The notes under the pieces: model-generated
What the model was told of the DNA's origin: nothing
What the model saw: the letters and a program-made list of their open reading frames with translations, nothing else
Databases searched by the model: none
NCBI GenBank assembly: GCA_964615365.1
Contig: CAZTOU010000016.1
Location: 28,277-92,276, forward strand
Length of the DNA: 64,000 bases
Source of the DNA: an uncultured Spirochaetales bacterium
GTDB taxonomy: Bacteria; Myxococcota_A; UBA9160; UBA6930
Reading direction: 5' to 3'
Position numbers and translations under genes: made by a program
In this document: positions 7,622 to 41,571 of the stretch, in pieces
Layout: the number at the start of each line of letters is the position of its first letter
Numbering within the stretch: the stretch's first letter is position 1

Positions 7622-8550
7622 GGCTCGCCGTCGCCCTCGGCTGGCACTCGCTGGCCTTCGAGGAGCTGCTCGAGCTGGTGCGCCACGCCGAGTCGGCGGG
7701 ATTCCGGGCGGCTTTCGTGGACGGGGACGTCTCTCAAATCCCGGGCCGCGGGGAGGGCGACGTCCTCGACGGATGGACCGTCACCGCGGCACTGCTGGCC
7801 AGGACGGAACGGATTCAGATCGGCTCGATCCGCCTGGTCCACCACTGGAACGCGGCGCGACTGGCCCAGGCCACCGCCACTCTGGAGCGCATCGCCCCGG
7901 GTCGGTTCCGCTTCCTGATCTCGATTGGCGGGCAGGCGGCGGACCGGTGCTTCGGCCTCCCGTTTCCCTCCGCGCGGGAGCGCATCGCTTGGCTGAACGA
8001 GACTCTCTGGGCGCTTCGTCGGCTCTGGCAGGGCGACGAGGTGACCTTACGAGGGCGCCACGTACGCCTCGGTGGCGCTCGGATCCGGCCCTGCCCCCCG
8101 GCGGGGCGGCTGCCCATCGAGATCGCCGCCGCCCGTCCTCGAATGCTCGAGCTGGTCGCCACCCACGCCGACGTGTGGGACATCAACCTCCCGCCAATCG
8201 CCTCCTGCTGCCGGACCGCCGAAGAGATCCTGGCCGACGCCTGCCGACGCGAAGACCGCGATCCGGGCGAGATCCGCCGCTCCATGTGGATCTTCACCCG
8301 GCCCCATGGGAGTCCTTCGGATGCGGCGATCCGAGACGAGTACCGCAAACTCAACCCGTGGTTCCGGAGCATCCCCGAGGAGCAGCTCGGCGAGGCGATC
8401 GTGGCCGGCTCCCCCGCGGCGTGTCGGAGCCGGATCCGCGAGATCACCGAGAGCTGCCGCCTCGACCTGCCGGTCGCGGATCTCTCCGGCCTCTCTCATG
8501 ACGCAGCGCGGCGCGCAATTGACGCCCTCGTTGACTCCGGTACCCGTTGA
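7618..8550 (+). CDS. LLM-class (luciferase-like) flavin/F420-dependent oxidoreductase
   Basis: TIM-barrel LLM-like sequence ('LGWHSLAFEELLELVRHAESAGFRAAFVDGD', 'RFRFLISIGG'). In-frame TTG 7618 overlaps the NUDIX stop. The N-terminal part of track ORF 7024..8550 overlaps the nth and NUDIX genes out of frame. Confidence 0.7.
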   Translation: MRLAVALGWHSLAFEELLELVRHAESAGFRAAFVDGDVSQIPGRGEGDVLDGWTVTAALLARTERIQIGSIRLVHHWNAARLAQATATLERIAPGRFRFLISIGGQAADRCFGLPFPSARERIAWLNETLWALRRLWQGDEVTLRGRHVRLGGARIRPCPPAGRLPIEIAAARPRMLELVATHADVWDINLPPIASCCRTAEEILADACRREDRDPGEIRRSMWIFTRPHGSPSDAAIRDEYRKLNPWFRSIPEEQLGEAIVAGSPAACRSRIREITESCRLDLPVADLSGLSHDAARRAIDALVDSGTR

Positions 8551-27971: not shown

Positions 27972-28703
27972 ATGAGCAATGCCACTGCGACCATCATCGG
28001 TGCCCTCATCCTGGGTCTCGCCATCGCGGCGGGCGGCTACCTGGTCTCTAGCTCGCTCGACAGGACCAGCGCGCGGTTGGGCGATATTCATTCCGCAATG
28101 ACCGAGATGGCCGAGAATGCGAAGGCCTCGGCGAGGGCCCCCGCCCCCACGCCGGCTCGCCGGCGTGGCCCCGACCCCAACCGCAAGTACGACGTCACGG
28201 TCGGGCGAGCACCGGTCCGCGGTCCCGAGAACGCCAAGGTCACGATCGTCGAGTTCTCGGACTTCCAGTGTCCCTTCTGCGCCAAGGTCGGCCCGACCTT
28301 GAAGCGGATCGAGGAGGAGTACGGCGACCAGGTCCGCATCGCCTTCAAGCATCTCCCGCTGAACTTCCACCCGCATGCGGTCCCCGCCTCCAAGGCGGCG
28401 TTGGCGGCGGCCAAGCAGGGCAAGTTCTGGGAGATGCACGACCTGATCTTTGCGAACCAGAAAGCCCTGGGGCCCGACCGGTACCTGGCCTGGGCCGGCG
28501 AGCTGAACCTGGACGTCGACCAGTTCGAGAAGGACATGACATCGGAAGACGTCGAGAGGTGGATCGACTCGGACAAGCGCGAGGCGGCCAGGCTCGGCGT
28601 CACTGGCACCCCCGGCTTCTTCGTGAACGGCTACTTCCTCTCCGGGGCCAAGCCCTTCGAGGCTTTCAAGGCCGCGATCGACAAGCAGCTGGGCGCCGGC
28701 TAG
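27972..28703 (+). CDS. DsbA-family thiol:disulfide oxidoreductase (membrane-anchored)
   Basis: 243-aa ORF with an N-terminal TM helix and thioredoxin motif 'FSDFQCPFCAK'. 'GTPGFFVNG' (cis-Pro region). GAGGTG upstream of the ATG. Confidence 0.85.
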   Translation: MSNATATIIGALILGLAIAAGGYLVSSSLDRTSARLGDIHSAMTEMAENAKASARAPAPTPARRRGPDPNRKYDVTVGRAPVRGPENAKVTIVEFSDFQCPFCAKVGPTLKRIEEEYGDQVRIAFKHLPLNFHPHAVPASKAALAAAKQGKFWEMHDLIFANQKALGPDRYLAWAGELNLDVDQFEKDMTSEDVERWIDSDKREAARLGVTGTPGFFVNGYFLSGAKPFEAFKAAIDKQLGAG

Positions 28704-28722: not shown

Positions 28723-29089
28723 CGCCAACTTCGGTAAGCCAATCGCAAGATCAGGGAACTGGTCCGTGCGCCGTACACTTCATACGATCACCGACGAGCC
28801 GAGCTGTGTGGCGATCTACAAGAATCGCTTCGAGATCCGGAGTTCGAGGAGTTCATCTCCTCAAGGCGGCTGAGAGCGCGGATTCGGATGACCTCCGGGA
28901 CCCTCATCGAGGAAGACCTCGATCTCGACGGTGCGAAGGAAGTGCGCGGCGAGTTCCTGCGTTCGCCGTGCGGTGAGCCGCCGAGAGGCGGGCACGTTGG
29001 GCATGGGCTGCGGGCTGGGGTTCGAGCTCGGCGCGATCCTCCCGGTGCTGCTCTGGCTCCATCAGCGGCGGAGGCGTCTCGCCGTGTGA
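28723..29089 (+). pseudogene. Decayed paralog of the 19270-19781 gene (no start or signal peptide, 138-nt internal deletion, frame breaks) ending in a GCGL...RRRR tail
   Basis: It aligns at the DNA level with 19346-19459 and 19598-19745. It begins 20 nt after the dsbA-like stop. The last 33 codons (28991-29089) read 'GTLGMGCGLGFELGAILPVLLWLHQRRRRLAV*'. Confidence 0.5.
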
Positions 29090-29166: not shown

Positions 29167-29201
29167 GGGAGTCGACCCCCGGCTTGGTTAGAATGCGGGC
29201 C

Positions 29202-30230
29202 ATGCAGAAGGGACTGATCCTGACCACCGGCATGGCTCGAGGCGACGTGGATCTGGCGGTGCGCGCCGAGGCGGCGGGCTTCGATTCCGTCTTCACCATC
29301 GAGTTCTTCAATCGGCACGGCTACGTACCCCTGGGCGCCATCGCACAGGCGACCCGGCGCATCCGCTTCGGGACGGGGATCGCCAATGCCTTTACCCGCA
29401 GCCCTCTCCTCCACGCCAGCGCGGCGATGGATCTCGACGAGCTCTCCGGGGGGCGGATGATTCTCGGGCTGGGAAGCGCCACGAGGCGCATGAACCAGAA
29501 CTGGTTCGGCGTCCCCTTCTCGGAGCCGGCCGCCCGCATGCGGGAGCTGGTCACGCTGCTTCGCCAGGCAATCGCCGCGCAGAGCGGCCTCGGCTTTCGC
29601 TTCGAGGGCCGCTTCTGGAACTTGAGCGTCCCGATCTACTCGCGGCCCGGTGCCGCGCGAACCGAAATTCCGATCTGGGTCGCCGCCGTCAACCGGGGCA
29701 TGATCGCCGCGGCGGGCGCCGTCGCCGACGCCCTGGTCGGCCACCCGATCGCGACCCGGCGCTGGCATCGCGAGGTCACCCTCCCCGGCCTGCGAAGCGC
29801 GGAGGAGAAAGCGGGCCGGGAATCCGGCGCCTGCAAGCTCGCGCCCTACGTTCTGACCTCCATCTCCGACGATCGCGATCAGGCCGTGCGCGACGCGAAG
29901 GGGCAGATCGGCTTCTACCTCACCACCGAGCTCTACCACTCGATACTCGACCTCCACGGGTTGCGCGAGGTCGGCCAGGCCTGCCGAGCGGCGCTTAGAA
30001 GCTTCGACCTCGCCGCCATGGCCGACGCCATCCCGGACCCGCTCGTCGAGGAGATCGCCATCGCCTGCACCCCGGACGAAGCGCGCGACCGCCTCGCCCA
30101 ATGGAACGATCTCACCGAGGAGCCCCTCTTCTACGCTCCCACCGTCGGGGTCGAGCCGGAACGGGTGGCCGCGAACCTCGACGCGATCCTGGATCTATTC
30201 GGCAGCCGCTCGGACGCGCCTTCGCCATAG
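29202..30230 (+). CDS. LLM-class F420/flavin-dependent oxidoreductase
   Basis: 'AEAAGFDSVFTIEFF', 'RIRFGTGIANAFTRSP' and 'RMILGLGSA' are typical of luciferase-like monooxygenases. In-frame ATGs at 29193 and 29202. A TAGAAT hexamer at 29189-29194. Confidence 0.8.
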   Translation: MQKGLILTTGMARGDVDLAVRAEAAGFDSVFTIEFFNRHGYVPLGAIAQATRRIRFGTGIANAFTRSPLLHASAAMDLDELSGGRMILGLGSATRRMNQNWFGVPFSEPAARMRELVTLLRQAIAAQSGLGFRFEGRFWNLSVPIYSRPGAARTEIPIWVAAVNRGMIAAAGAVADALVGHPIATRRWHREVTLPGLRSAEEKAGRESGACKLAPYVLTSISDDRDQAVRDAKGQIGFYLTTELYHSILDLHGLREVGQACRAALRSFDLAAMADAIPDPLVEEIAIACTPDEARDRLAQWNDLTEEPLFYAPTVGVEPERVAANLDAILDLFGSRSDAPSP

Positions 30231-30968
30231 CCACATCAGCGGCGGCAGGACGAACAGCAGCTCGGAGCTCAGGCCGCAGCCGTAGAAAGCCCCCTCCTGG
30301 TTCTTCCAGGGCTGTCCGACGCACTGCGGGTCCGGGTTCGCCACGCCGTCTCCGTCGGGATCGCTGACGTTGGCGGGGCAACCTCCGGGCTCGCCCGTGC
30401 AGATTCCCCAGATCGACTGTCCGCCGTCGAAGTCGATCAGCCCCGGATCCGGATCCGATCCCGGATCGTTGTTGATCCCGTCCTGGCACTCGGGCGCCTC
30501 GAGGGGCGCAAGGTGGTCGCCGCATCCGGGATCGTCCGGGTAGTCGACCCAGCCGTCGGAGTCGTTGTCGAGGCGGTCGTCGCACGGGTACGCCGGGTAC
30601 TCCGGCCCGAACTGGAGGATTTGCAGGCCGGCGGATCCCCGGGCGACGTAGGCGAGCTCCCCGACCACCTCGACACCCCTGCCCCAGTCCGCGGGGATGA
30701 ACCCGATCTCGACCGGAGCTGCGGGGTTCGAGAGGTCGATGATCCGAACGCCACTGGGGTTTGTGTGGACGACGTAGGCGAGCCCGCCGGCGATCTCGAC
30801 GTCCAAGACGAAGCCCGGCGTGTCGAGGGCTCCGACGTTGATCAGCGCTGCGGCGCGCTCACCTGCGACGAGCCAGAAGACGATCGCCAGGGCAACGAGG
30901 AGGATTCCCGCGGTCTGAACCCTGTTCACCAGGAGTGTGTCAAGGTGTCGCGAACCGAGCGGAGTCAT
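30195..30968 (-). CDS. Secreted LVIVD-repeat / TSP3-like Asp-rich protein with a C-terminal GCGL-TM-RRR tail
   Basis: 257-aa ORF with a signal anchor. LVIVD-like 'GGLAYVVHTNPSGVRIIDLSNPAAP' and 'GELAYVARGSAGLQILQF'. Ca-binding-like 'DNDSDGWVDYPDD' and 'DPDGDGVANPD'. The tail is 'YGCGLSSELLFVLPPLMWLWRRRVRAAAE*'. GGAGGTG upstream of the ATG. Confidence 0.7.
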   Translation of the reverse strand: MTPLGSRHLDTLLVNRVQTAGILLVALAIVFWLVAGERAAALINVGALDTPGFVLDVEIAGGLAYVVHTNPSGVRIIDLSNPAAPVEIGFIPADWGRGVEVVGELAYVARGSAGLQILQFGPEYPAYPCDDRLDNDSDGWVDYPDDPGCGDHLAPLEAPECQDGINNDPGSDPDPGLIDFDGGQSIWGICTGEPGGCPANVSDPDGDGVANPDPQCVGQPWKNQEGAFYGCGLSSELLFVLPPLMWLWRRRVRAAAE

Positions 30969-35363: not shown

Positions 35364-35858
35364 ATGAGCCGTCGATACAGCGGTCCGCCGCTGACCACCG
35401 AGCAGGTGCTGGAGCGATACAGCTCGGGCCCCAAGAGCGGGTTGTTCACCGACGGCTCCTGTGAGGGGAACCCGGGCCCCGGCGGCTGGGGCTTCGTCTG
35501 GGTCGAGAACGACGAGATCGTGCAGGAGCGGTGCGGCAGCGATGCCGACACCACCAACAATCGCATGGAGCTCACCGCCCTGATCGAGGCGCTCCGCGTC
35601 CTTCCCGAGGACGCCGAGATCACCGTCTACTCGGACAGCCAGCTCTGCGTGAAGACGGTGAACGAGTGGGCAGCGGGCTGGGAGAAGCGCGGCTGGAAGC
35701 GCAAGAGCGGACCGATCGCCAACCTGGAGCGGGTGAAGCGGTTCTACGAGCTGGCCCGAGCCCATCCGCGGGTTCGCATCGAGTGGATCAGGGCCCACGA
35801 CGGCTCGCGCTGGAACGAGTACGCGGACGCCCTGGCGTCCCGTCATCTAATCGGGTAG
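35364..35858 (+). CDS. rnhA: Ribonuclease HI
   Basis: 164-aa ORF with 'TDGSCEGNPGPGGWGF', 'TNNRMELTALIEAL', 'VYSDSQ' and 'NEYADALA'. Confidence 0.9.
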   Translation: MSRRYSGPPLTTEQVLERYSSGPKSGLFTDGSCEGNPGPGGWGFVWVENDEIVQERCGSDADTTNNRMELTALIEALRVLPEDAEITVYSDSQLCVKTVNEWAAGWEKRGWKRKSGPIANLERVKRFYELARAHPRVRIEWIRAHDGSRWNEYADALASRHLIG

Positions 35859-36722
35859 CGAGGCCGGCTCCTCCGGGATGGCGCAGCTCACCGGGAGGTC
35901 GGCGAGCGCCGCAGCGAAGAGCTCTCGGTTCTTTTCGCCCAGATCGTCGCGCAGCAGCACCTCGCAAACCTCTCCCGAGGCGATACGCTGCACGTCGACC
36001 GCGACCGCCCAGAGGAAGAGCGCCGCCAGACCGGCGGCGACCCACCGCATCCAGCGCGGAGAGGGGCCCAGGGGAATCGGCCCCGCACCGCGGGAGACGA
36101 GGGCCATCGCGGCCATTCCACCGGCGAAGCCGCCGAAGTGCGCAGACCAGGCGATTTTGAAGGGGAGCACGACAGCCAGGAGTGCATCCCCGACCAGAGC
36201 GATGGGGATGACCCACCTTACCCGGCGCAGCAGGGGCGTCAGGGACCTCTTCTGTCGCAGCACCAGTGTCCCCCAAGCCCCGAGCATTCCGAAGATCGCC
36301 CCGGAGGCTCCCACCACCACAGTTCCTCCCGGCGGCACGGCGACGGTGGCGAGCGAGCCGGCGAGCATCGAGAGAGCGATGACCAGCAGTGTCCTCAGGC
36401 TCCCGACCTGTGCCTCCAGCGCTGCACCCAATCCCAGCAAGCCCGCCAGATTCATCGTGAAGTGGATATCGTCCGCGTGCAGGAGAGGGGCGGTGAAGAT
36501 GCGGAAGACCTCCCCCTCCCGTACCAACTCCGGGTCGAGGCCACCGACCAGGTACGCCGAGTGGCCGGTGCCGTCCTCGGTGAGCGCGTTCGCCCACCAA
36601 AGGGCCGCGAAGACCAGCGAGAGCAGTGCGGCGAAGCTGAGGGTCGTGGTAGCGCCATGGTACTGAACACCGTCGGGGCCCGTCGTCCAGAAGCTCGGGC
36701 GGAGCCGGTCACCTTCGCTCAT
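35847..36722 (-). CDS. Rhomboid-family intramembrane serine protease, translationally coupled to the RHS gene
   Basis: 291 aa from ATG 36722, which overlaps the RHS stop as ATGA. 'RIFTAPLLHADDIHFTMNL', catalytic 'GASGAIFG' and 'HFGGFAGG'. There is an extra C-terminal TM helix and a tail. Confidence 0.8.
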   Translation of the reverse strand: MSEGDRLRPSFWTTGPDGVQYHGATTTLSFAALLSLVFAALWWANALTEDGTGHSAYLVGGLDPELVREGEVFRIFTAPLLHADDIHFTMNLAGLLGLGAALEAQVGSLRTLLVIALSMLAGSLATVAVPPGGTVVVGASGAIFGMLGAWGTLVLRQKRSLTPLLRRVRWVIPIALVGDALLAVVLPFKIAWSAHFGGFAGGMAAMALVSRGAGPIPLGPSPRWMRWVAAGLAALFLWAVAVDVQRIASGEVCEVLLRDDLGEKNRELFAAALADLPVSCAIPEEPASLPD

Positions 36723-39700
36723 CGGTGTCGCCTCCACCGGCGCGCGGCCCATCTGCGGATCAGCAGAGGGGCGAGCAGAAGCTGCGCCGCAATCAAGAAC
36801 CAGTGCAGATGTCCGAGGCCTGGGACCGAGGCGAGCCGCACCGGCGAGCAGCTCCCCGAGCTGGAGGACGTGGGTACGCTGGGGATGGATGCGAGGGCGG
36901 TTGAGCTGTCCGAGGTGAGTGCGCGACCCAGCGTCAAGGAGAAGCCGAGACCTGTCACCCCGAAGGCTGCCGCTGCCACCGCGGCGGCCAACGCCGTGGT
37001 GACGAAGAAGAGAGCGATGGCCGCCAAGATCAGGCCGAGGGCGGCGGCGCCCACCGCCACGACGGCCTCGGCATTTCGCCCATCCGGATCCGCGAACCAC
37101 ACAGGATTGCCCAGCGCATAGGCGTACTGGTTGACGTACTGGAGCACCGGATCCGGGGACAGGAAGCGGCCCACGGCGGGATCGTAGACCCTCGCGCCCA
37201 GAACCATCAACTCGCCGATCTGGGTGCGGCCCGCGAAGCGCACGAAGTCGTCGTCGGTGCCGATCACCTGGCGCAGCCCGTAGGCATCGTACTCGTAGTG
37301 GCTGTGGACCTCGCCGTCCTGGTCGCTCACGAACTTGACGTTGCCGCGGAAGTCCAGGTGGCGGTAGCGACGCTCGCCCGTGGCGAACTCCACGCGAACC
37401 TCTCCGAGATCGATCGCGCTGGGAATGCCCGCCGGGTCCGCCTGCACCCGCCCGCCGAAGAGCCAGCGGCTCTCCACCTCCATCACCACGGAGCGCACCC
37501 TGCGGTCCAGCGCGTCCCACTCGAAGAGGACGTCGCTCCCATAGGAGGCCAGCCGACCGGATGCGGTCCAGGTGAGGGGGACCCCCCGGCGCGAGGTGGC
37601 GAATCCCGCCTCGTCGTAGCTGTAGTCGATGGTTCCCGCCGCGAGAGTCGTCGCCGAGAGCAGGCGATTGCTCTCCGCGTTGTAGGTGAAGCTCTCGCCG
37701 AGGGCGGTCGACCCCAGGCCGTTGCTGAGCGCGTCGTACTCGTATGCACTGTGCAGGGTCTCACCGATCCAGAAGTAGACGCGCTGGCCGGCCACCGGCT
37801 CCTGGCCCGGCGTCCCGAATCCGGGTCCCAGCATGTACTCCTCGCTGGTGGTGGCGGCGACAGCTCCGAAGGTCGTGGTGAGGGCGGTGGCATGTAGCCC
37901 CGGCGCGAACGCCATCGGCCCCTCCCATGTGATCTCGGTCTCCTCCACCACCCCACCGGGACCCTCGGTCGTGGAGCCTTCCAGCTGGCCGTTCGACGGG
38001 TCGTAGCGGTAGAGCCGCACCAGACCGTTTCCATGGCTCGTCAGGGCGAGCTTCCCGTCCTGGTAGACGTGCTGGACCAGGAGGTGACCGTTGTCCGAGA
38101 GGCTCACCCGCCGATCGGCGAGATCGTATCCGTGATCGAACCAGCGGAGGAGCAAGTCGCTCGCCAGGACCTCGCGGGTCGTTCGGGAGCGCAGGTCGTG
38201 GGTCAGCAGCAGGATCTCTCCGTCCGGATACTCGACCTGTACGACTCGGTCCGCAGTGTCGTACGAGTAGAGCTCGACCCCACCGCGTACCGAGTCTTCG
38301 AGGCTTCGAAGCCGTCCCTCTGCGTAGCCCATGACCGCCGCGGACTCGATTGCGCCGTCGCGGAGATTGCGGATCGACACGACCCGACCCACCGCGTCGT
38401 AGTCGGCCTCCCGCCGCATCCCGTTGGCCAGCTCGGTCGCGGTGACACGCCCGGCGGCGTCGTACTCGAGGGTCGTCGAAGCCCAGGCGCCGTCCACCCT
38501 CTCGCGGATCCGTGCCAGGCGGCCCAGGGAGTCGTAGTCGAACTCGTCATCGCCTCCACCGGGACGCGCGATCCGCGTGCGCAGGCCGTCGCTGCGGTGT
38601 TCGATCTCGATGTACTGATCGGGATGCCGCGGGATGCCCCCGTAGGCCGCATCCGCCACCCGGATGCGACGGAGATTGCGGTCCTCGTCGTATTCGCGGG
38701 AGACGACCCCACCGAGCTCGGGAGTCACGCCGTGGATGCCCCGGAGCAGGTTGCCCACCAGATCGTACTCGTTCTCGATCTCGAGTTCGTCGGTGGTCAG
38801 CAGGGTCGGGTGACCGTGGGCGCCGTGGCCGTCGTACTCGACCACTCCGTTCGCGGTGGTGAAGGAGGCGACGGTCTGGTCGGACGCGTAGCTGTAGCTC
38901 GCCACGACCTCTCCCTCACCGTTCTCCACCGCCACCAGTCGGCCGGATCCGTCGTAGCTGCGCCGCTCTCGCAGGCCGATGCTGTCGACGATCTCGAGCG
39001 GGGCTCGCTCCAGGAGGGCCTCGCGATTCACCGCGGCGGCGGCATAGCTGAAGCTGACCACGTTGCCGGATGGCTGGATCTCGATGGCGACGTCGTCGTC
39101 TTGATGGCTCCAGCGGGTCGTCGCGCCACTCGGCTGGGTCTCCTCGCCGACCCGGAGTCCGTCCCAGGAGAGGTACAGCGCCTCCTCCACGTCCGTCGAT
39201 TCCCGCTCGCGGAGACGGCGCTCCCCGTCGTAGCGAAACCAGGTCACGTGGCCGAGCGGATCGATGTGCCGGGTCGCGAAGAGCCCGGCCTCGTTCTTGA
39301 CGTAGTAGTCGAACCGGTGGACCGGATGCTCCTCTCCGATCGCCCGTACCTCTCGTACGCGACGACCCCCGTAGAGGTACTCGACGCGCTCTCCCTCCGA
39401 GCTGACGATCGCACTGAGGTCGATCCCCGAGTACTCGTATCGGGTGCCCGGCCATCCGCGTGCGGTGTCGAGCCCGTCGCGAATCCCCGTCAGGCGATCG
39501 GCCGAGTAGAGGATCTCCGCGACTCGGCCGGCGCGATCGCTGATCGAGGCGACCTGCCCGTCCGGTCCATAGGAAATCTCGAAGACCGGCTCGCAGTCCC
39601 CGGAACCCATGCACTGATCGATCGCGACGGTTCGCGGCGCTCCCGCCACGATCCCTTGCAGGTAGGAGAGGCGCGGATAATCCGCGCTCGCGTAATGGAC

Positions 39701-40165
39701 GGCGCTGAGTCGGGAATCCGGGGCGAAATCGTAGGCGAGCCCTCCCTTGGTCTTTACGGTGTCGGCGTCGACGACCACCCAGACGGTTCCGGGAATCGCG
39801 TCTCCGTGCGCGAGGGCCCTGGTGTCATGGGAGGCGCCGGTCGGATCGACGAAGAGGGCCCCGTCGTAGCGGACGTCGAAGCTCCAGAGCCACCCCCGGG
39901 AGGCGGAGTTGTAGGCGGCACCGATCTCGCGGGTTCCGAGATGCGTGTCGATGCTGAGAACCGAACGTCGGACCAGCAGGTTTCCACCCAGGGGATTGAC
40001 GACTGCACCGGGAACCTCCAGCACGGCGCGCTCCTGGTACTGGGGCAAGCCGGCCGCCGGCGCCAGCTTCTTGGCCCTCGGCGGACAGCCCAGCGCCGCG
40101 ATCAAGGCGATCGACAGCACGGCGATCGCGCGATTCATCGGACTTGCGGAGTGCGGATTCCTCAT
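36719..40165 (-). CDS. RHS/YD-repeat protein with signal/lipobox-like N-terminus and an atypical hydrophobic, Cys-containing C-terminal tip
   Basis: 1148-aa ORF. N-terminus 'AIAVLSIALIAALGC'. Many YD repeats ('YDAAGRVTATE', 'YDAVGRVVSI', 'YDSLGRLARI'). The RHS core ends 'GRFLSPDP...GNPVWFADPDGR'. The 118-aa tip contains TM segments, an 'SSSSGSCSP' stretch and 'WFLIAAQLLLAPLLIRRWAARRWRRHR*'. GGAGAGGG upstream of ATG 40165. Confidence 0.9.
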   Translation of the reverse strand: MRNPHSASPMNRAIAVLSIALIAALGCPPRAKKLAPAAGLPQYQERAVLEVPGAVVNPLGGNLLVRRSVLSIDTHLGTREIGAAYNSASRGWLWSFDVRYDGALFVDPTGASHDTRALAHGDAIPGTVWVVVDADTVKTKGGLAYDFAPDSRLSAVHYASADYPRLSYLQGIVAGAPRTVAIDQCMGSGDCEPVFEISYGPDGQVASISDRAGRVAEILYSADRLTGIRDGLDTARGWPGTRYEYSGIDLSAIVSSEGERVEYLYGGRRVREVRAIGEEHPVHRFDYYVKNEAGLFATRHIDPLGHVTWFRYDGERRLRERESTDVEEALYLSWDGLRVGEETQPSGATTRWSHQDDDVAIEIQPSGNVVSFSYAAAAVNREALLERAPLEIVDSIGLRERRSYDGSGRLVAVENGEGEVVASYSYASDQTVASFTTANGVVEYDGHGAHGHPTLLTTDELEIENEYDLVGNLLRGIHGVTPELGGVVSREYDEDRNLRRIRVADAAYGGIPRHPDQYIEIEHRSDGLRTRIARPGGGDDEFDYDSLGRLARIRERVDGAWASTTLEYDAAGRVTATELANGMRREADYDAVGRVVSIRNLRDGAIESAAVMGYAEGRLRSLEDSVRGGVELYSYDTADRVVQVEYPDGEILLLTHDLRSRTTREVLASDLLLRWFDHGYDLADRRVSLSDNGHLLVQHVYQDGKLALTSHGNGLVRLYRYDPSNGQLEGSTTEGPGGVVEETEITWEGPMAFAPGLHATALTTTFGAVAATTSEEYMLGPGFGTPGQEPVAGQRVYFWIGETLHSAYEYDALSNGLGSTALGESFTYNAESNRLLSATTLAAGTIDYSYDEAGFATSRRGVPLTWTASGRLASYGSDVLFEWDALDRRVRSVVMEVESRWLFGGRVQADPAGIPSAIDLGEVRVEFATGERRYRHLDFRGNVKFVSDQDGEVHSHYEYDAYGLRQVIGTDDDFVRFAGRTQIGELMVLGARVYDPAVGRFLSPDPVLQYVNQYAYALGNPVWFADPDGRNAEAVVAVGAAALGLILAAIALFFVTTALAAAVAAAAFGVTGLGFSLTLGRALTSDSSTALASIPSVPTSSSSGSCSPVRLASVPGLGHLHWFLIAAQLLLAPLLIRRWAARRWRRHR

Positions 40166-40237: not shown

Positions 40238-40855
40238 TCACCCATGCAGCGCACCCCCCGCGGATTCCCAGACCGAACGGAGATTCAGCCCCGCGTGCAG
40301 TCCGATGCACGCGGCTACCGTCCGGGAGACGCGGCGAAGGAGCGCCAGCAGCATTCCGACCAGGAAGCTCCCGAGCATCGGCCACGGTGTGAGATGGGTG
40401 ATCGCGAACAGCGCGCTGGTGAGAAGCGCCGCACCGCCCGTTCCCACCGGTGTCGCCGCGATGGCGTCGAAGAGGCGCTCGCGATAGAGCAGCTCCTCGA
40501 AGACCGGCGCGGCCAACACCACCGCGAACAGAAGGGAAAGGCCGGGAGCGGGCGAAGGGGCCAGCAGGCTCGGATCGAGCCCCAGCGCGAGGCCGGCCAG
40601 AGCGATCGCGCCGCAGAGGGAGGGATGGGCGGCGAATCCGAGCGCGCCCGCCAAGCCGAAGAGGACCGCGTGGCGCAGCCGAGGCCGCACCCGGAACGGA
40701 CGGCGCGTCGCGATCAGAAAGGCCGCGGCGAGGCTCATGACCACGAGCACCGCGGGCTCTTCGCCGACCCGCGAAGAGAGCCGGGATCCGCTCACCAGGA
40801 TCGTCCAGACCGCCAGCATCGCCAGAAGCGCGCGGAGCAACGGATCGTTCCTCAT
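40238..40855 (-). CDS. CPBP-family (CAAX/Abi-type) intramembrane glutamic endopeptidase
   Basis: Motifs 'EELLYR' (EExxxR), 'FAITH' (FxxxH) and 'HAGLN' (HxxxN) in a polytopic ORF. ATG 40855 overlaps the upstream stop as ATGA; the track ORF starts at 40870. Confidence 0.8.
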   Translation of the reverse strand: MRNDPLLRALLAMLAVWTILVSGSRLSSRVGEEPAVLVVMSLAAAFLIATRRPFRVRPRLRHAVLFGLAGALGFAAHPSLCGAIALAGLALGLDPSLLAPSPAPGLSLLFAVVLAAPVFEELLYRERLFDAIAATPVGTGGAALLTSALFAITHLTPWPMLGSFLVGMLLALLRRVSRTVAACIGLHAGLNLRSVWESAGGALHG

Positions 40856-41571
40856 CGCAAACCGACCCATGAGCGGGGGCGGGGGGGCCTAGATGCGGCC
40901 GCGGCCATCGCGGATCCGATCGCGACCCAGCCCATCCCCAGCACCTCCGGCGCGATCAGGGGTTCGCCAAGGGGAGACGGCGCGCGGAATGGCTCGATCG
41001 CCAGACGCATCGCCCCGAAACCATAGAGTGTCGCCGATCCGACCCATGCCCGCGGAAGGCGCCGCGTCCACGCGGCGAGGCCCAGGAGCCCCGCGATCTC
41101 GTAGAGCCGGGTCGGATGGTCTCCAAACCAACCCGCAGCCCCGTGACAGCATCCGGAGGCGATGCAGCCGAGTCGCGCCACCGCGAAGGCGTGGGGCAGG
41201 CTCCCCAGCGCCGCTCCGAGGTACCGCTCCCGCGCGACCCGCCCCCGCGGCAAGAGGGCGATGACCCCCAGAGGCGCGAACAGCACGCTGTGGCCGGCCG
41301 CGGGACGCAGCAGCGCCCGCGGATCCGCCGCCACGTCGTCGAGATGAAGTAGCGCCCAGCCGAGGTGCGCCGCCGCTGCCGCCAGGACCAGGCCGGCGAC
41401 GAAGCGAACCCCGCTCTCCGCCGGCCCTCCCCGGTGGAGGTAGTCGAAGACCGCCATCCAGAACGCGCCGCCGAGTGCGACCATGCGCCCGACCTCGGCC
41501 AGGGGTGGGTGCAGGTGGGCCGCGAACGCTGCGCTCGACGCCAGGGCCCAAAGCACGGTGCGGGCGCCCAT
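40852..41571 (-). CDS. Prolipoprotein diacylglyceryl transferase (Lgt) family protein, Cys-rich loop variant
   Basis: 239-aa polytopic ORF. 'ARLGCIASGCCHG' aligns with Lgt 'GRLGNFINGELWG', 'HPTRLYE' with 'HPSQLYE', and 'YGFGAMRLAIEPFR' with 'YGAFRIIVEFFR'. Confidence 0.7.
   Translation of the reverse strand: MGARTVLWALASSAAFAAHLHPPLAEVGRMVALGGAFWMAVFDYLHRGGPAESGVRFVAGLVLAAAAAHLGWALLHLDDVAADPRALLRPAAGHSVLFAPLGVIALLPRGRVARERYLGAALGSLPHAFAVARLGCIASGCCHGAAGWFGDHPTRLYEIAGLLGLAAWTRRLPRAWVGSATLYGFGAMRLAIEPFRAPSPLGEPLIAPEVLGMGWVAIGSAMAAAASRPPRPRSWVGLR

Follow-up and report, generated by a model that had tools for sequence, protein, structure and literature searches.

Which enzymes and adhesins remain on the bacterial surface is determined by C-terminal sorting tags, and the definition of a new tag at once makes the surface proteins of an entire lineage open to annotation. 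Four Cys-containing tripartite signals are known (MYXO-, JDVT-, Synerg- and CGP-CTERM), and all of them have been assigned to CPBP/Rce1-type Mrt proteases (10.1101/2023.06.07.544157), with experimental confirmation in the case of MrtX (PMC11980579). The published models for MYXO-CTERM postulate a two-step "Lgt-like acyltransferase plus CPBP" pathway (PMC11980579), and strong conservation inside the helix, namely of an acidic residue and of Pro, is the expected mark of intramembrane-protease substrates (10.1101/2023.06.07.544157). The subject of the present analysis is a C-terminal tail encoded at two sites in a 64,000-nucleotide stretch of DNA from an uncultured bacterium (GenBank assembly GCA_964615365.1, contig CAZTOU010000016.1, positions 28,277 to 92,276; hereafter the window, from whose first letter all its coordinates are counted). 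The tail, with the conserved core C-G-[LI]-G-x-E-[LV], is probably a new, uncatalogued Cys-type tripartite C-terminal sorting signal of diderm bacteria. What is directly observed in this reading is the motif itself, its confinement to true C-termini, its modular behaviour, the breadth of its carriers and the lack of a match to any known model.

The two tails of the window

The window has a G+C content of 68.5%, and the tail stands at the end of two of its open reading frames (ORFs), the features concerned being the following.

30198..30281, minus strand: tail of the LVIVD protein, GCGLSSELLFVLPPLMWLWRRRVRAAAE, from translation; stop codon at 30195-30197
30195..30968, minus strand: ORF of the LVIVD carrier, 257 aa
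30285..30611, minus strand: acidic Cys-rich Ca-binding-like module of this carrier (...DNDSDG...CQDGINND...IDFDGGQS...DPDGDGVANPDPQCVGQPWKNQE), from homologue comparison
29006..29089, plus strand: second tail, GCGLGFELGAILPVLLWLHQRRRRLAV, with its stop codon, at the end of a 52-aa orphan ORF (28931..29089)

The 257-aa carrier starts with a hydrophobic N-terminal signal or anchor segment (aa 18-36), followed by an LVIVD repeat region (aa ~52-118; PF08309, 30.2 bits) and an acidic, Cys-rich, TSP3-like module (aa ~120-228), which is in turn followed by the tail; weak NCBIfam matches to the acidic double-disulfide repeat and to choice-of-anchor B were also obtained with this protein. In its tail, the signature C-G-L-S-S-E-L leads into a short hydrophobic helix, kinked at Pro-Pro and with Trp at its end, behind which stands an Arg cluster. 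This tail scores 54.6-54.7 bits against the tail profile described below and has Ser in place of the second Gly of the motif, a position that is otherwise almost invariant. The second tail, whose sequence lies outside the training set of the profile, scores 41.2 bits (E=1.3e-11). An upstream domain was sought in every frame for its 52-aa ORF, and none was recognisable; the ORF is probably a gene relic, and it was left uncalled by the gene caller in L009, a contig identical to that of the window.

When the whole 64-kb window was searched in six frames with the regular expression GCG-x(2-5)-E-[LIVF], two sites only were found, both of them the tails above, each 27-28 residues ahead of a stop. 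A six-frame scan with the tail profile left everything except the two tails at or below 5 bits. The DNA identity between the two tails is only ~57%, and a recent duplication is therefore ruled out as their origin.

A sequence-only reading of the window had described three tails of one architecture, of which those of the LVIVD protein and of the relic are as it described them. The third, at the end of an RHS protein (SCSPVRLASVPGLGHLHWFLIAAQLLLAPLLIRRWAARRWRRHR, 36722-36856), likewise combines a Cys with a hydrophobic helix and an Arg cluster, but it is without C-G-L-G-x-E-L, and it was ruled out as a member of the family since the tail profile gives no match to it at E<=10. This RHS tail is kept among orthologues in a form of its own (SCSPVRLASVPGLGxLHW...LLLAPLLIR..RRRR).

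The orphan ORF can alternatively be read as a 28-aa peptide with the start MGCGLG at 29003. Tail-only orphan ORFs that lack an upstream domain occur elsewhere too (L051, 1947-2168; L006, 1610-1756), and such ORFs are what remains of deleted genes, or else they indicate movement of the tail by recombination.

Anatomy and conservation of the tail

Across homologues the core C-G-[LI]-G-x-E-[LV] is followed directly by a helix with the consensus LALLLPPLMWL, containing a Pro-Pro kink and a Trp, and then by the Arg cluster, so that the consensus of the whole tail, which is ~25 residues long, can be written as CGLGxELALLLPPLxWLxRRRR. The layout is thus that of the tripartite class, with a signature motif, a hydrophobic helix and a basic cluster at the extreme C-terminus. 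The Cys, Gly and Glu are invariant in 83 aligned tails, and the Cys lies most often 25 residues from the C-terminus. In a set of 96 aligned tails, with positions counted from the Cys, conservation was found for Leu at +2 (90 sequences), Glu at +5 (91), Pro at +11 (69) and +12 (50), Leu at +13 (88), Trp at +15 (65) and Arg at +18 to +20 (69 to 81). The motif had originally been given as G-C-G-L-x-x-E-L; its core has held up, but the Gly ahead of the Cys is poorly kept, being present in only 28 of the 96 sequences.

Recurrence on unrelated proteins

A search with the whole 257-aa protein returned 153 homologues, most of which aligned only over its C-terminal 35-50%, at 50-70% identity, and whose N-terminal regions contained many different Pfam domains. 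The motif C-G-[LI]-G-x-E-[LV] was present in 99 of 120 matches. The acidic module itself is found on many different N-terminal domains at 56-88% identity and precedes the tail often, not always; in homologues it matches NF033662 (acid_disulf_rpt) with up to 52.5 bits.

The tail alone was then represented by a profile of 33 positions (A1), which was searched against 1.84 billion (1.84e9) cluster representatives and recovered 1,670 protein clusters at E<=1e-3, 36 of them at E<=1e-10. That the tails might owe their similarity to the shared ancestry of one paralogous fragment was not upheld by this search, the acidic DPxC module being absent from 74 of the 128 top matches. At least four unrelated modules precede the tail (the acidic DPQCVGKPWKN; one of 33 letters; NPFVGWKLDGG...NNAEH; and VTVCVPHDQGQG), and a Pfam census of 129 carriers gave 34 families of the kind usual for secreted hydrolases and adhesins, among them LVIVD, FG-GAP, FGE-sulfatase, GDSL lipase, CAP, subtilase, trypsin, sulfatase, multicopper oxidase and metallophosphatase, as well as PKD and cadherin-like domains. 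The view that a recurrent, sorting-signal-like C-terminal tail sits on unrelated proteins is borne out by these counts.

A signal-peptide-like N-terminus was seen in 55 of 107 carriers (those starting with Met and at least 180 aa long), and the carriers that lack it look truncated at contig ends. The tail is therefore present on many otherwise unrelated exported proteins, as are the signals of the tripartite class. In NCBIfam, carriers match the choice-of-anchor B and Q domains and the acidic double-disulfide repeat, families (Haft) that are typical of proteins with interchangeable sorting tails. Tail genes can be dense, at 2-3 per 15-20 kb in several loci (two in each of L042, L044 and L046, three in L048), and in one set of JGI samples many paralogues share the common ending ...ALILPGLMWLHRRRRRLH. 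The tag marks at least 1,670 clusters, among them sulfatases, phosphatases, proteases, lipases and adhesins of uncultured high-GC bacteria, which annotation pipelines now call "hypothetical", and a hidden Markov model (HMM) built from alignment A1 would be directly usable for their annotation and also for phylogenetic profiling.

Restriction to the C-terminus and autonomy of the tail

The other possibility raised at the outset, that the motif occurs at internal positions with similar frequency, was not upheld either. The 351 profile matches examined fall in 348 proteins; 300 of them stop at most 5 residues short of the C-terminus and another 32 at most 15 residues short (332 of 351), so that the tail behaves like the known tripartite signals in being confined to true C-termini. 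The remaining 19 are followed by an Arg/Pro/Gly-rich read-through or by the apparent signal peptide of the next gene, and they look like read-through products or fused tandem genes. In six-frame scans of ~690 kb of loci, every genuine tail match abuts a stop codon. The profile separates well, genuine matches scoring at least 19.6 bits versus noise of at most 5 bits in the window scan. No tail was found by the same six-frame scan in 25 control loci from unrelated bacteria, which had been fetched via distant rhomboids.

The autonomy of the tail is best illustrated by two adjacent genes of the L044 contig (9113-9843 and 10001-10903), which have 71 of 72 nucleotides in common across the tail and stop codon. 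Directly upstream of the tail, where the two genes encode different modules, the identity is no better than chance (12 of 30 and 50 of 180 positions, ~28%), and the boundary of homology lies at Ser-Cys. This is concerted evolution, or gene conversion, of the tail alone, bounded at the Cys codon, which shows that selection acts on the tail as a unit of its own, like known sorting signals.

Frameshifted or read-through tails were noticed after an alkaline phosphatase, a PhoD phosphatase and a 257-aa protein (L046, 7340-7551; L048, 2969-3715 and 944-2035), and these may reflect assembly error in near-identical tails, or real decay.

Comparison with catalogued sorting signals

The window tails and consensus-like tails were scanned at E<=10 against NCBIfam release 20 (June 2026) and Pfam, and no sorting-domain model of either collection reached its cutoff. 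The best scores were 12.6 bits for Synerg-CTERM (TIGR04564; with the tail of protein P0012, cutoff 22.5), 10.2 bits for GlyGly-CTERM (TIGR03501; cutoff 15.5), where only the transmembrane (TM) and Arg part was covered, and 8.0 bits for MYXO-CTERM (TIGR03901.2; with a consensus-like tail, E=3.7, cutoff 20). The MYXO-CTERM model gave no match to the window tails, and the models for PEP-CTERM (PF07589, TIGR02595) and JDVT-CTERM gave none to any tail scanned. In full-text literature searches, no paper mentioning the motif turned up.

The tail had earlier been called closest in spirit to MYXO-CTERM and different in sequence, a description that fits both the invariant Cys and the low score of the MYXO-CTERM model. 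Like MYXO-CTERM, the signal of the myxosortases MrtX, MrtC and MrtP, the tail appears to be present on many secreted enzymes and adhesins of a genome, those genomes with its accompanying module that have a label are metagenome-assembled genomes (MAGs) of Myxococcota or Deltaproteobacteria, and a CPBP protease is encoded near the window tail. MYXO-CTERM, however, has G-C-G-C and a Gly/Ser/Ala-rich spacer where the window-type tail has C-G-L-G-x-E-L, and in the latter the helix begins at once, with conserved Glu, Pro-Pro and Trp.

JDVT-CTERM, the signal of MrtJ (NF033192), resembles the tail in its single invariant Cys and in lacking a spacer ahead of the helix, and also in having an acidic residue and Pro in the helix (D-P nine residues after the Cys in JDVT-CTERM; Glu at +5 and Pro at +11 and +12 in the present tail). 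MrtJ is moreover the best NCBIfam match of the window's CPBP protease, and its cassette of an enzyme plus a single target resembles the arrangement of CPBP and RHS genes in the window. The score against MrtJ is nevertheless 36.7 bits with a cutoff of 75, and JDVT-CTERM has one target per genome and is found in Pseudomonadota, whereas the tail is carried by hundreds to thousands of proteins.

A further likeness is to the CAAX system of eukaryotes and archaea, in which prenylation precedes cleavage by Rce1, and to the bacterial lipoprotein pathway of Lgt and LspA, in that small or aliphatic residues come after the Cys (C-G-L-G) and that the window has an overlapping gene pair for an Rce1-family protease and an Lgt homologue. 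Unlike a CAAX box, in which the Cys is 4 residues from the end, the tail has its Cys ~25 residues away, and its membrane topology is inverted relative to that of lipoprotein signal peptides; the Lgt homologue also differs from Lgt, having no head domain and Cys in place of N146 and E151.

The four-gene operon with candidate processing enzymes

The genes for a CPBP protease, a rhomboid and an Lgt-like protein had been proposed as encoding candidate processing enzymes of the tail. They are real and belong to one conserved operon, and the two proteases have their catalytic motifs intact; no independent co-occurrence or neighbourhood tie between them and the tail was found in the loci examined. 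The operon runs on the minus strand from 41571 to 35847, in the following order.

40852..41571, minus strand: divergent minimal Lgt homologue, 239 aa, with a 19-nt overlap with the CPBP start
40238..40870, minus strand: CPBP (Rce1-like) glutamic intramembrane protease, 210 aa, candidate processing enzyme
36719..40165, minus strand: RHS/YD-shell protein, 1148 aa, with RHS core and repeats
35847..36722, minus strand: rhombosortase-like rhomboid intramembrane serine protease, 291 aa, candidate processing enzyme, its ATG overlapping the RHS stop (ATGA)

It is unusual for a single RHS gene to be accompanied by genes for three membrane-embedded processing enzymes. Operon and flanks alike are kept in the further contigs examined, in which the rhomboid is 58-69% identical to that of the window, and the cassette is a stable trait of this lineage; in L002 and L039 an AMP-binding enzyme stands in place of the LVIVD gene. 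Proximity of the operon to the tail gene was rejected as evidence of a functional link, because synteny extends over the whole block and those two contigs have a different gene at the LVIVD position. It is equally conceivable that the operon is dedicated to the RHS protein, in the manner of the single-target cassette of MrtJ.

The CPBP protease matches PF02517 with 59.2 bits, compared with a threshold of 22.4, and contains all of the motifs EELLYR, FAITH and HAGLN. Its best NCBIfam matches all remain under their cutoffs: MrtJ at 36.7 bits, MrtS at 32.7 and Mrt_core (NF040914) at 29.2, where the cutoff is 100. The scores with MrtP (20.2) and MrtC (19.0) are lower, and the protein thus falls within the CPBP family and outside the myxosortases as currently modelled. 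The rhomboid matches PF01694 with 100.4 bits and has its GASG, HxxxN (HFTMN) and AHFGG motifs intact. Its clade is tight, with ~39 clusters at 52% identity or more and then a sharp drop, and a metagenome scan with the rhomboid alignment yielded 3 orthologous loci and 25 distant rhomboids.

The Lgt homologue is the most divergent of the three. It scores 23.8 bits with PF01790, for which the gathering score is 24.9 (three of four orthologues do match), and its sole match in the PDB is E. coli Lgt (5AZB) at E=0.21; aligned with E. coli Lgt by hhalign, it gives E=4e-4 over 159 columns. Its segment RLGCxxxGCCHG aligns with R143-LGN146FINGE151LWG154 of the E. coli enzyme, so that R143 and G154 are kept and N146 and E151 are replaced by Cys, and this RLGC-x3-GCCHG motif is kept in all four orthologues. 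HPTRLYE aligns with HPSQLYE, and the equivalents of H196/Y201/E202 and of R239/E243/R246 are kept. The periplasmic head domain is absent, which together with the Cys motif suggests an altered substrate or chemistry.

The RHS protein has a lipobox-like N-terminus (IAALGC), and in place of a toxin domain there are two or three TM helices after its core (DPDG). It is a conserved, apparently single-copy protein and not a polymorphic toxin.

Proposed mechanism and alternative explanations

By analogy with the known signals, tail proteins would be cleaved, modified at the Cys and anchored at the surface. A carrier would be exported through Sec via its N-terminal signal peptide, and the tail helix would then hold it transiently in the inner membrane, with the arginines on the cytoplasmic side. 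The invariant Cys would be modified, probably by lipidation, after which an intramembrane protease would cut the helix off, leaving the enzyme or adhesin attached to the cell surface.

As to the enzyme itself, a CPBP/Rce1-type protease may be responsible, an assignment that is tentative, and it is just as plausible that the enzyme is encoded elsewhere in the genome; a role for the rhombosortase-like rhomboid at 35847-36722 appears doubtful. CPBP is ranked first because all four known Cys-type signals use CPBP and because the local CPBP protein leans to the Mrt family; the rhomboid is ranked second. Within the CPBP option, the best concrete candidate is the protease at 40238-40870, possibly together with the adjacent Lgt homologue. 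A more far-reaching version, in which the Lgt paralogue would lipidate the invariant Cys and CPBP would then remove the helix, would make this pair, in an operon with the RHS and rhomboid genes, the complete two-step machinery for Cys-type signals including CGLGxEL; this version is unlikely. If true, it would identify the "Lgt-like acyltransferase" postulated in the myxosortase field (PMC11980579) and would raise the number of Cys-type sorting systems to five, the new one being very large. Together with the invariant Cys of the tail, the Lgt-homologue/CPBP pair of the genome provides a concrete, testable candidate for the missing Cys-modifying step of a myxosortase-type pathway.

Some observations weigh against a processed sorting signal. 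The hydrophobic stretch after the Glu is only ~11-12 residues long, which is short for a stable TM helix, and the distance of 5 kb between operon and tail gene reflects conserved synteny only. Furthermore, homologues of the window's rhomboid, CPBP and Lgt-like protein were all absent from the surroundings of tail genes in other loci (L004-L008 and L042-L049, with ~150 kb of distinct sequence, and L051). One alternative is a permanent, uncleaved C-terminal membrane anchor that has spread with a mobile extracellular module by descent and shuffling, and the absence of a cognate enzyme linked to the tail in the loci examined speaks for it. The acidic module and the tail do occur together on many carriers, and the relic ORFs (window 28931-29089, L051 and L006) show that the segment was moved or left behind by recombination. 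Plain anchoring, on the other hand, needs neither a Cys, two Gly and a Glu at fixed spacing nor Pro-Pro and Trp in the helix, and it does not account for a tail that stands directly after at least four unrelated modules or for a gene conversion bounded exactly at the Cys, so that a mere anchor is quite improbable.

The rhombosortase-like rhomboid of the operon leads to another explanation, namely that the tail is a variant of GlyGly-CTERM and that the rhomboid at 35847-36722 cuts within or near G-L-G, the Pro-Pro kink providing the helix instability that rhomboids require in their substrates. Both signals have a Gly-containing motif that abuts the TM helix and is followed by an Arg cluster, the tail has two small Gly and helix-breaking prolines, and a rhombosortase-like rhomboid is encoded in a conserved operon 5 kb from the tail gene. 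The best NCBIfam match of this rhomboid is indeed rhombosortase (TIGR03902, 58.7 bits, with near full-length coverage of the profile, versus 23 for GlpG), its Ser and His catalytic motifs are intact, and its tight clade would fit a lineage-restricted system; the gene is also translationally coupled to that of the RHS protein, whose product has a GLG-containing C-terminal TM tail. These 58.7 bits are, however, below the cutoff of 84, so that the models of both signal and enzyme stay under their cutoffs, and the GlyGly-CTERM model covers the TM and Arg part only. The invariant Cys is foreign to GlyGly-CTERM, as is the invariant Glu, the RHS protein whose gene is coupled to the rhomboid has a different tail, and no CGLG-tail gene lies beside any rhomboid orthologue in the loci examined. 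A rhombosortase-type signal is for these reasons unlikely. Less probable still is a divergent PEP-CTERM signal for exosortase, in which the conserved Glu would correspond to that of P-E-P. It would share with the tail the tripartite layout without spacer, a Glu that is almost invariant where the helix begins, at the membrane boundary, and a Pro-rich helix, and PEP-CTERM is likewise abundant on secreted proteins of environmental diderm bacteria. On the L046 contig, a canonical PEP-CTERM protein (...IPEPTTALLLGIGFAGLAAAGRRRSLH; ...NPIPEPTTALLLGIGFAGLAAAGRRRSLH; 8069-8536, minus strand) is even encoded together with two CGLG-tail genes, from which it follows that an exosortase system probably coexists in that host, and hence in at least one host of the tail. 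The tail nevertheless has no P-E-P and no match to the PEP-CTERM models, its invariant Cys-Gly-Leu-Gly is foreign to that class, and the occurrence of two sharply different motif classes as separate entities on one contig argues for two recognition systems. In the precomputed Pfam lists for the neighbourhoods of the tail genes in L042-L049 and L051, no exosortase was present. A Cys-type sorting signal thus remains the preferred explanation of the tail.

Host range

The genome scan was done with an alignment of the C-terminal module, its patterns being drawn from the acidic module and not from the tail, and it located the module in five MAGs, whose labels are Myxococcota, Myxococcales, Deltaproteobacteria or "bacterium"; 4 of the 5 loci carry the tail. 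The G+C content of all tail-bearing loci is 65-73%. The tail had been proposed to be lineage-specific, which is plausible in view of this narrow range and of the labels, and its confinement to a restricted lineage is likely; two short contigs are labelled Actinobacteria or Gemmatimonadales. The contig of the window is also deposited in the European Nucleotide Archive (ENA) as ERZ23498668 scaffold_1202, and the same assembly holds a second, different tail protein, P0012.

Other features of the window

Scans of the window with Rfam and for tRNA genes gave no matches. The 3′ end of a gene for an F420/LLM-class oxidoreductase (29184-30230, plus strand) overlaps convergently by 36 nt (30195-30230) with the tail-coding end of the LVIVD gene on the minus strand. 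The relic tail ORF is preceded, at a distance of about 230 nt, by a gene for a DsbA-like thioredoxin-fold protein (27972-28703, plus strand), the best NCBIfam match of which is the Rcas_1661-family thioredoxin-like lipoprotein (104.8 bits, cutoff 190); its proximity to a gene for a module with many disulfide Cys may be coincidental.

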